Shown here: piece after piece, positions 1,277 through 2,362 of the stretch | How the letters are laid out: each line of letters starts with the position of its first letter | How positions within the stretch are numbered: the stretch's first letter is position 1 | Source: Escherichia coli | Lineage (GTDB): Bacteria; Pseudomonadota; Gammaproteobacteria; Enterobacterales; Enterobacteriaceae | Reading direction: 5' to 3' (one strand) | DNA: 5,793 nucleotides | Assembly (NCBI RefSeq): GCF_003334255.1 | Contig: NZ_QOWU01000103.1 | Position numbers and translations under genes: made by a program | Notes under the pieces: model-generated | The model's database searches: none | What the model was told of the DNA's origin: nothing | What the model saw: only the letters and a program-made list of their open reading frames with translations

Positions 1277-2362
1277 ATGGCAAGCTACCATTGTACAGTT
1301 AAAACTGGAGCAAAAGGCGTAGCCTTAAAACATGCTGATTATATTTCTAGATCCGGCGAATATAAGAACTACAAATCGCGGGAGGATCTGGAATTTTCGT
1401 CATCCGGTAACATGCCATCATGGGCGAAGAAAAATCCCGCAGAGCTATGGAAAGCAGCAGATGAATTTGAACGAAAAAACGGGACGGCATACCGTGAAAT
1501 TGAGATCGCATTACCGCGAGAACTGACACGCGAACAACGGATAGAACTTGTTGAAGATTTCGTGCAAAAGGAGCTTGGTGATCGCCATGCCTATCAGTAC
1601 GCGATCCACAATCCGCCAGGTGCAATCGACGGAAAGGAACAACCACACGCACATATCATGTTTTGCGAGCGGATTAATGATGGTATTGAACGCGATCCGC
1701 AGCAGTTTTTTAAACGTGCCAACAGCAAATCACCGGAGCGGGGAGGTGCAAAAAAGGCACGCTTTGGTGAGACACCACAAGAGCGAAAATCAGCCTTGGT
1801 TGCGCTACGTTCTCACTGGGCTGATGTGCAGAATGAACACCTTGCGCGGCACGGCCATCAGTCGCGCGTTGATCATCGTTCACTGAAAGAACAGGGTATC
1901 AAGCGCACACCGGAAGTTCATCTTGGTCCCGTTCGTGTTGCTGTTATGAATGCTGATCAGGTTTGTGCAATTCTGGCACGGAGAAACGCGGAACGGGAGA
2001 AGCTAGAAGCAGAGCAGGAACGGGACAGCATCATTGACCTTAAAACGACCTTGAAGGAAGCGTTAGCTGAACGGGATAACATACCACCAAGCCTGGATGA
2101 GCTTGGGGCAGAATTGAAGGCGTTTGTTGAAAGCTCGTTTGATGAACTCAATGAGGTAATGCAGCTTAATTCATTGATTAACGGTGCGCTGGACTCAATG
2201 ATGAAGCAATTCCAGGTGGAAGAGGAGCGGAAGTTGCAACAGGAACGACTAATTGAAGCCGAAAAGCAAAGAGACCTGGAGAGGGAAAGAGAAAGAGTGC
2301 GCCAGCGTGCGTATTCCTCACCAGCACCATCACGTTCACGTGATTATGGTATGAGCCGTTAA
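1277..2362 (+). CDS. mobA: MobA/MobL-family (MOBQ) conjugative relaxase, 361 aa, relaxase domain only, no primase domain
   Basis: The N-terminus MASYHCTVKTG...ALKHADYISR parallels RSF1010 MobA (MAIYHLTAKTG...AKADYIQR, catalytic Tyr). The histidine motif HAHIMFCERINDGIER parallels HCHLMISERINDGIER, and HRSLKEQGIKRTPEVHLGP parallels HRTLEAQGIERLPGVHLGP. GGAGGG lies 11 nt upstream of the ATG. The C-terminal ~150 aa are charged and coiled-coil-like. Confidence 0.9.
   Translation: MASYHCTVKTGAKGVALKHADYISRSGEYKNYKSREDLEFSSSGNMPSWAKKNPAELWKAADEFERKNGTAYREIEIALPRELTREQRIELVEDFVQKELGDRHAYQYAIHNPPGAIDGKEQPHAHIMFCERINDGIERDPQQFFKRANSKSPERGGAKKARFGETPQERKSALVALRSHWADVQNEHLARHGHQSRVDHRSLKEQGIKRTPEVHLGPVRVAVMNADQVCAILARRNAEREKLEAEQERDSIIDLKTTLKEALAERDNIPPSLDELGAELKAFVESSFDELNEVMQLNSLINGALDSMMKQFQVEEERKLQQERLIEAEKQRDLERERERVRQRAYSSPAPSRSRDYGMSR

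Follow-up and report, generated by a model that had tools for sequence, protein, structure and literature searches.

A compact pSC101-type MobA relaxase with a helical C-terminal tail that may dock it to helper coupling proteins

We analysed the mobA gene on a 5793-base stretch of Escherichia coli DNA (the window; contig NZ_QOWU01000103.1 of assembly GCF_003334255.1), concentrating on the C-terminal tail of the encoded protein. Judged by its sequence, the protein belongs to the R1162/pSC101 clade of MOBQ relaxases as a MobA of the pSC101 type, and it is encoded on a ColE2-type mobilizable plasmid. Its tail is probably, though by no means certainly, a module for docking and translocation, by which the relaxase–DNA adduct is handed to a helper coupling protein and type IV secretion system (T4SS). 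E. coli and Salmonella very often carry small mobilizable plasmids of this type; the helper range of these plasmids depends on coupling-protein recognition of the relaxase, a step that is poorly defined for MOBQ relaxases. An earlier note, made from the DNA sequence alone, had correctly described a compact relaxase with a helical charged tail and had offered coupling-protein recognition as one role for that tail; this is the best supported of the functions considered here, and one that we infer. The vague 'charged tail' can now be divided into three separable elements, namely a heptad segment with a candidate partner in the protein MobX, a charged spacer and a seven-residue C-terminal motif. 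The most informative features, the downstream mobX gene and the C-terminal motif, were absent from the earlier note. Positions of the gene, the parts of its product and the adjoining mobX-like gene are as follows.

1277–2362, plus strand: mobA coding sequence, ATG to stop, 361 residues plus stop codon; identical to RefSeq WP_001530418.1 ('MobA/MobL family protein')
1277–1939, plus strand: relaxase (HUH) domain, residues 1–221 (Pfam, PDB 2NS6 alignment, Foldseek)
1952–2077, plus strand: tail helix 1, residues 226–267 (…ILARRNAERE…DSIIDLKTTLKEALAERD; AlphaFold2; NCBIfam TraA_Ti aligns to residues 25–267)
2078–2092, plus strand: helix break or linker NIPPS, residues 268–272 (alignments, AlphaFold2)
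2093–2218, plus strand: heptad half of helix 2, residues 273–314, with about six conserved hydrophobic a/d heptads
2219–2311, plus strand: charged half of helix 2, residues 315–345 (EEERKLQQERLIEAEKQRDLERERERVRQRA), with 23 of 30 residues E/R/K/Q at 315–344
2312–2359, plus strand: disordered, basic, S/P/R-rich end, residues 346–361 (YSSPAPSRSRDYGMSR; pLDDT <50 and composition)
2339–2359, plus strand: terminal motif R-D-Y-G-M-S-R-COOH, residues 355–361, an instance of the clade consensus R-D-x-G-[MIL]-[SEG]-R
2383–3099, plus strand: mobX-like gene, 238 residues, annotated 'hypothetical', beginning 20 nt past the mobA stop

The relaxase domain of ~200 residues proposed in the earlier note is borne out by domain prediction, which the note had itself named as a check: Pfam MobA_MobL (PF03389) spans residues 25–221 (E = 9e-38), and the crystal structure of the minimal MobA of R1162 (PDB 2NS6) aligns to residues 2–194 (E = 3.5e-37). 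A Foldseek search with the predicted model returned the relaxase structures 2ns6 (probability 1.00) and 4ht4. The 2NS6 alignment pairs Y22, E74/E76 and H111/H124/H126 of the window protein with Y25, E74/E76 and H112/H120/H122 of R1162, and the MOBQ signature is complete (motif I Tyr, motif II acidic pair, motif III 3-His). Homologues fall into two groups. Compact full-length relatives of 355–375 aa, from Proteus, Providencia, Yersinia, Morganella, Xenorhabdus, Salmonella and others, cover 97–100% of the query at 54–67% identity, the architecture being kept across Enterobacterales, whereas long E. coli and Shigella relaxases of 513–619 aa match the N-terminal part only, at ~90% identity limited to residues 1 to ~240. 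Assignment of the long forms (514–619 aa) to the published MOBQ4 family was considered and rejected, the prototype ColE9-J MobA being 31% identical in the relaxase domain and accompanied by a different small MobC. The window MobA is not MOBQ4 either: its relaxase domain is 31% identical to that of ColE9-J MobA, as against a family average of 84%. Two irregular members were also seen. One apparent compact relaxase, P0015 of Escherichia albertii (370 aa), is an in-frame internal deletion of a 516-aa long form which joins residue 216 to the last ~150 residues and retains the C-terminal end; in a Shimwellia contig (L013) the MobA open reading frame ends at residue 241.

Two AlphaFold2 (AF2) predictions, one of the full protein (80 homologues) and one of the isolated tail (18 homologues), agree on two long tail helices, at residues 226–267 and 273–346 (pLDDT 80–95), with NIPPS between them and residues 347–361 disordered. 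The monomer models are extended (pTM 0.31). On sequence evidence, helix 1 prolongs the relaxase domain in a way conserved among MOBQ relaxases, because the TraA_Ti family reaches residue 267 and the alignment of the compact-family profile with R1162 MobA reaches ~residue 247, albeit with low confidence after ~215. Beyond helix 1 (past ~residue 250) no tail similarity to R1162 MobA was detectable, no Pfam or NCBIfam family matched past residue 267, and the tail had no match in Pfam or fold searches. The linker between the helices varies in length, with ~20–30 additional P/E/Q-rich residues in proteins of the pSC101 group.

The two halves of helix 2 differ in kind. Among 18 tails, conserved hydrophobic residues recur with a spacing of 3–4 at 280, 283/284, 288, 291, 295, 297, 300/301, 305, 308, 311 and 314, whereas the charged run at 315–345 has a single conserved hydrophobic pair; the 7/2 hydrophobic moment is 0.49 at 273–314 against 0.06 in the charged stretch. 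Taking at least four contiguous a/d heptads within a helix as the mark of a coiled coil, residues 273–314 qualify and residues 315–345 do not, so that in the predicted model it is the former that is the coiled-coil-forming segment of the tail. The earlier note had called the tail coiled-coil-like and rich in E/R/K/Q heptad-like repeats over ~150 residues. The first description suits the conserved heptads but not the E/R/K/Q run that the note quoted, which lacks a hydrophobic core; of the second, a charged cluster at 315–344 is real (23/30 E/R/K/Q; P = 5e-5, 20,000 shuffles), but across the whole tail (222–361) the share is 38%, compared with 32% in the relaxase domain, and Tandem Repeats Finder detected no tandem repeats in the tail DNA. 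The quoted peptide was also slightly mis-transcribed, the actual sequence being ...DLERERERVRQR and not ...DLEREREVRQR. Within the charged run, 12 pairs of opposite charge stand at i,i+3, where 6.1 would be expected (P = 0.001), but just 2 at i,i+4, where 5.9 would be expected; from this pattern it is a salt-bridged helix, as opposed to a classical ER/K single alpha-helix, for which its 31 residues do not qualify. Finally, the Ser/Pro/Arg-rich end that the note had described is confirmed, with 62% S/P/R in residues 346–361 (best window 11/16, P = 0.005). The last 20 residues carry a net charge of +4, and arginines stand at 340, 342, 344, 353, 355 and 361. The C-end is thus disordered, net-positive and Arg-rich, as expected of the last 20–50 residues in a T4SS C-terminal charged signal, positive C-terminal charge being a known T4SS signal (PMC10025392, PMC3297438).

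A partner for this tail is suggested by the gene that follows it. The 238-residue protein is 29% identical to pSC101 MobX over 140 aa (E = 6e-13) and, on that similarity, is a diverged MobX; no Pfam or NCBIfam family covers it. We surveyed 35 loci drawn from a species-representative genome scan, and plasmid records in addition. A mobX homologue lies 2–21 nt past the mobA stop in every compact MobA locus (355–379 aa) that is not cut at a contig end (17/17), and these loci form three deeply diverged lineages with tails just 25–40% identical between them. Not one of the ~20 relaxases with other C-terminal architectures (255–950 aa) has a downstream mobX, and traD-like genes stand near most relaxases of both kinds. 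A 'Rosetta-stone' fusion, in which the long C-terminal region would be a fused MobX, was tried and gave no match, and the long-form plasmid L041 contains no nested or downstream mobX- or mobB-like open reading frame. In a separate case from Acinetobacter lwoffii (locus L020, 4106–4567), a 153-aa open reading frame right after the gene for a compact MobA of 327 aa, the tail of which is unrelated, matches the MobX profile weakly (E = 0.027), hinting from sequence that small MobB/MobX-like partners may accompany compact MOBQ relaxases more widely.

Members of the MobX family have an N-terminal heptad helix with an invariant KIAAL, one transmembrane helix and a C-terminal segment with two conserved Cys; in the window MobX the transmembrane helix lies at ~150–172 and the Cys pair follows the membrane segment. 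The family profile scores 11.5 bits against MobB of R1162, a value reached by 0/2000 full shuffles and by 3/2000 segment-preserving shuffles, and the two proteins have in common a juxtamembrane motif, R..SR..WK, followed by the transmembrane helix. This evidence is weak but specific, and MobX is possibly the pSC101-type counterpart of MobB.

The second informative feature is found at the extreme C-terminus, where the window MobA ends in DYGMSR, pSC101 MobA in DKGWSFSR, the Salmonella compact lineage in SPGWSR, ColE9-J MobA in FRGMSM, an Acinetobacter relaxase in SKGMERD, the long forms in DQGMEL and DQDMER, and R1162 MobA in RGMDRGGPDFSM. With the relaxase domain as the sole query, a search of 1.84 billion cluster representatives gave 1208 of them with E <1e-30, and the best 150 of these, each representing a 50%-identity cluster and ranging in length from 223 to 758 aa, were examined. 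The pattern G[WMFLIY][SED] occurs within the last 8 residues in 44/150, where 2.3–4.2 would be expected from internal windows (binomial P ~4e-32); this P value is optimistic in that the pattern had been derived from ~10 relatives before its use on the 150, and the position-specific frequencies do not depend on the pattern. Counting from the C-end, these are R at −7 (30%), D or G at −6 (49%), R at −5 (23%), G at −4 (48%, 10.5-fold over background), M, I or L at −3 (41%), S, E or G at −2 (73%) and R at −1 (59%, 6-fold over background). The R-D-Y-G-M-S-R end of the window protein matches the consensus at 6/7 positions. Occurrence of the motif is independent of protein length, of the intervening region and of the presence of mobX.

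Comparison of related plasmids bears on the modularity of the tail. DNA homology to the Shigella long-form plasmid p75-02_5 extends over window positions 465–1998 at 91% and then ends; the break falls at mobA codon 241 (window 1998/1999), within the conserved RRNAERE of helix 1. Homology with Salmonella compact-MobA plasmids (75%) and with the Col156 plasmids of Shigella and E. coli, which have the long tail (91%), stops at one and the same base; the DNA from 1999 to ~4851 is lineage-specific. At the protein level, identity to the Salmonella compact lineage is 86% in the relaxase domain and 74% in the TraD-like protein, compared with 28% in the tail and 26% in MobX. Across 13 loci, pairwise divergence of the tail correlates with that of MobX (r = 0.92) more closely than with that of the relaxase domain (r = 0.81) or the TraD-like protein (r = 0.82), while relaxase-domain divergence correlates best with the TraD-like protein (r = 0.95). 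Physical linkage alone could also produce the correlation between tail and MobX. A search with residues 267–361 alone found this plasmid lineage only, this version of the tail occurring on no other kind of protein. Homology of the tail to the long-form C-terminal regions was considered, but the matches were not significant (BLASTP E = 0.5–1; hhalign probability <1%) and reflect similar composition only. More distant tail sequences of pSC101 type (35% identical to the query tail) were seen, unannotated, in many large (50–355 kb) conjugative plasmids of E. coli, Klebsiella, Enterobacter and Salmonella, where they probably mark integrated small mobilizable plasmids.

The tail changes quickly but not freely. 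Its identity to the pSC101 group is 34%, against 69% for the relaxase domain, and dN/dS is 0.12–0.35 in the tail (five independent pairs), 0.01–0.14 in the relaxase domain and 0.07–0.23 in mobX. From these ratios the tail is under purifying selection, more relaxed than that on the catalytic domain. A separate observation concerns synonymous change: in two independent plasmid pairs, dS of the tail (1997–2362) is two- to three-fold below that of the flanking relaxase domain and mobX (0.09–0.11 against 0.24–0.25 in the L040 comparison, and 0.27–0.33 against 0.72–0.85 in the L042/L044 pair). This is not seen within the pSC101 group, and could come from mosaic recombination or from an overlapping constraint. 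Promoter and terminator scans around the tail returned chance levels only.

In the mechanism that we favour, residues 1–221 would nick the R1162-like oriT and become covalently bound to the transferred strand, and the C-terminal 140 residues would form a non-catalytic extended rod made up of helix 1, the proline break, a 73-residue helix and the basic end. The heptad segment (273–314), unpaired in the monomer model, would pair with the cytoplasmic coiled coil of the membrane-anchored MobX, which would play the role that MobB has for R1162. The charged helix at 315–345 would act as a rigid spacer, and the helper coupling protein would recognise the disordered basic tip with its terminal motif. 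What is known of R1162 offers a precedent. Its MobA has two internal type IV transport signals, at residues 204–323 and 322–387, right behind the relaxase domain (PMC10025392), and these need MobB, a small membrane protein, going by the title of Parker & Meyer 2007 as cited in PMC10025392; in addition, the C-terminal 48 residues suffice for VirB/D4-dependent translocation (PMC10025392, PMC3297438). The earlier note had set the tail in place of the primase domain of IncQ relaxases. There is no primase here at all, and by its location the tail takes the place of the R1162 inter-domain segment 204–387 with its MobB-dependent signals, not that of the primase.

The heptads might alternatively serve homo-oligomerisation, with residues 273–314 of two MobA molecules forming a parallel or antiparallel coiled coil that pairs the relaxase domains at oriT or stabilises the relaxosome, as may be compared with the C-terminal leucine zipper of MobM from pMV158. 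Such a role would be consistent with a helix that has six conserved a/d heptads and stays unpacked in the AF2 models, and full-length MobM is reported to be dimeric and its N-terminal 199-residue fragment monomeric (PMC3105389). We nevertheless think it unlikely to be what the tail is for, as both the strict association with mobX and the conserved terminal motif would be left unexplained. Moreover, sister relaxases with ~90% identical relaxase domains differ in their C-terminal regions, and therefore any dimerisation is not tied to the catalytic domain. Dimerisation and docking are mutually compatible.

Binding to DNA would be a function of another sort: helix 1 and the basic end would touch oriT DNA (duplex or single-stranded) or the TraD-like protein, thereby stabilising the relaxosome and aiding nicking on supercoiled DNA or re-ligation, not secretion. 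The extension of the relaxase domain by a helix conserved with TraA_Ti, and weakly with R1162, would suit this idea, as would the net charge of +4 at the end and the presence of traD-like genes beside nearly all relatives. However, beyond helix 1 it is MobX that the tail tracks and not the TraD-like protein or the relaxase domain, and conservation of a motif at a set distance from the free C-end points more often to a peptide ligand than to a surface that binds DNA. Plasmids whose relaxases bear unrelated long tails have the oriT core and traD at 91% DNA identity; functions close to oriT are therefore independent of this particular tail, and we give the DNA-binding proposal little credence. 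Least probable of all, and disfavoured, is that the tail does nothing specific, being a low-complexity spacer or leftover under weak constraint. Its much faster evolution relative to the relaxase domain, its variable linker and the lack of Pfam and fold-search matches are what such a remnant would lead one to expect, but the dN/dS values in five independent pairs, the heptad positions kept in three lineages, the terminal motif conserved in the sample of 150 representatives and an architecture retained throughout Enterobacterales all speak against it.

Several points also weigh against docking and translocation as the function of the tail. Co-occurrence with mobX may be mere common descent of one cassette together with physical linkage, and the relation between MobX and MobB depends on the 11.5-bit match. 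In this plasmid GC3 is 0.48 in the tail, matching the backbone, and 0.29 in mobX, matching the low-GC cargo, such that the two need not have arrived jointly; the step from 0.48 to 0.29 weakens the idea, which we had entertained, that a single recent acquisition brought in tail and mobX together. Past helix 1, no resemblance in sequence could be detected between the tail and the transport-signal segment of R1162. The motif also occurs in relaxases without mobX, and contact with MobX and contact with the coupling protein are therefore independent hypotheses. Lastly, IncP-type transfer of R1162 needs the large internal signals and not C-terminal charge (PMC3297438), so the C-terminal motif may matter only for some helpers.

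A more specific form of the docking proposal can be put forward tentatively, and we hold it to be possible but doubtful. In it, the heptapeptide R-D-x-G-[MIL]-[SEG]-R-COOH would be a hitherto unrecognised, clade-wide signal by which R1162/pSC101-like MOBQ relaxases, whatever their length, dock to helper coupling proteins, and the heptad segment would be a site for the MobB/MobX family of membrane adaptors; exchange of tail and adaptor at codon 241 would re-target a relaxase–oriT pair, in other respects identical, to other helpers. Were the motif a coupling-protein ligand, helper compatibility could be read from the sequence by a simple marker, and the motif would be a small target for the blocking of mobilization.

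The window covers an entire circular plasmid of 5716 bp with an overlap of 77 bases, positions 1–77 recurring at 5717–5793. At 100% identity it matches E. coli plasmid JE86-ST05_p5 (NZ_AP022820.1), one of ~29 near-identical records of the 5716-bp plasmid from E. coli and Salmonella. Six genes are annotated in the JE86-ST05_p5 record (rep, traD-like, MobA/MobL, a 238-aa hypothetical, a LysE-family exporter and a 316-aa hypothetical). The features outside mobA and mobX are listed below.

5240–5716, then 1–452: ColE2-type rep gene, spanning the circular junction (record annotation)
659–1105, minus strand: traD-like relaxosome accessory gene, 148 residues, divergent from mobA (record annotation; Pfam PF06412 in relatives)
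1190–1212, minus strand: second perfect 9-bp hairpin (CATCCCTGA/TCAGGGATG), directly after the oriT core and overlapping the presumed nic region
1209–1246, minus strand: R1162-type oriT core, made up of the inverted repeat GTTTCTC-N9-GAGAAAC, gtc and then the TAAGTGCGCATC nic region
3157–3729, minus strand: LysE-family exporter (record annotation)
3736–4686, minus strand: 316-residue hypothetical protein (record annotation)

The oriT core was recognised by its sequence pattern, with a nic region of the TAAGTGCGC type and the inverted repeat upstream of it, adjoining mobA; the same R1162-type pattern is present in the IncQ locus L004 and in sister plasmids. The block at 2383–4850, which holds the mobX-like, LysE-family exporter and 316-aa genes, has a GC content of ~30–35%, compared with ~50% for the backbone. 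Matches of the 316-aa protein to SAM-dependent enzymes are weak (NCBIfam CmoA, E = 2e-6; Pfam spermine synthase domain, E = 0.0014), and together with the LysE-family exporter it may, from sequence, constitute cargo for the synthesis and export of a small molecule.

The exact plasmid is already public and the gene is of a known kind, an annotated pSC101-type compact MobA with MobX. Only the terminal motif is a mildly novel point: a literature search found no description of it in searchable papers, which is not proof of novelty.

The closest known system is pSC101 (NC_002056), which has the same cassette in the same order as the window, namely a traD-like gene, oriT, mobA and mobX. Its MobA (371 aa, against 361 aa in the window) is 51% identical over the full length (E = 2e-118, window residues 1–349), with both tail helices and the charged run included, its TraD-like homologue is 55% identical to the window protein, and the C-ends are alike in form (…PDKGWSFSR in pSC101 and …SRDYGMSR in the window). 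The two differ past residue 240, where the tail is ~38% identical, and in MobX, which is ~25% identical; the window linker is ~20 residues shorter, the window MobX is 44 aa longer and low-GC, and the replicon is of ColE2 type where pSC101 has RepA. The window relaxase domain is also nearer to those of the long-tailed E. coli and Shigella relaxases (~90%) than to that of pSC101 (61–69%). With MobA of R1162/RSF1010 the window protein shares a homologous relaxase domain (E = 3.5e-37), the same catalytic residues, the same oriT core and a basic C-end. R1162 MobA, however, is 709 aa long and includes a RepB domain, whereas the window MobA ends at 361 and is no IncQ relaxase–primase fusion. R1162 mobB is nested out of frame within mobA, while mobX is a separate downstream gene, and the accessory protein is TraD-like in the window but MobC in R1162.

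Three further systems resemble the window protein in part. A disordered, Arg-rich, net-positive end of 20–50 residues is common to it and to the C-terminal signals that VirB/D4 substrates carry (Vergunst et al. 2005, as related in PMC10025392 and PMC3297438); to this the window protein adds the position-specific G-[MIL]-[SE]-R-COOH, a putative signal that lies outside the published VirB/D4 Arg consensus. MobM of pMV158 (MOBV) likewise combines an N-terminal relaxase of ~200 aa with a helical, coiled-coil-prone C-terminal part, described as dispensable for nicking (PMC3105389). It differs in having a histidine nucleophile and in belonging to another relaxase class, with no sequence relation and no known MobX-like partner, and the likeness is one of analogy only. 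The MOBQ4 plasmids (Garcillan-Barcia et al. 2019, PMC6856555) are also small enterobacterial mobilizable plasmids, some with ColE2-type replicons, in which oriT lies between divergent mob genes, and the end of ColE9-J MobA (…RRPGHFRGMSM) resembles that of the window protein; they differ in that their relaxases, of ~740 aa, carry a SogL-like domain at the C-terminus and are accompanied by a small MobC of ~87 aa (PMC6856555).

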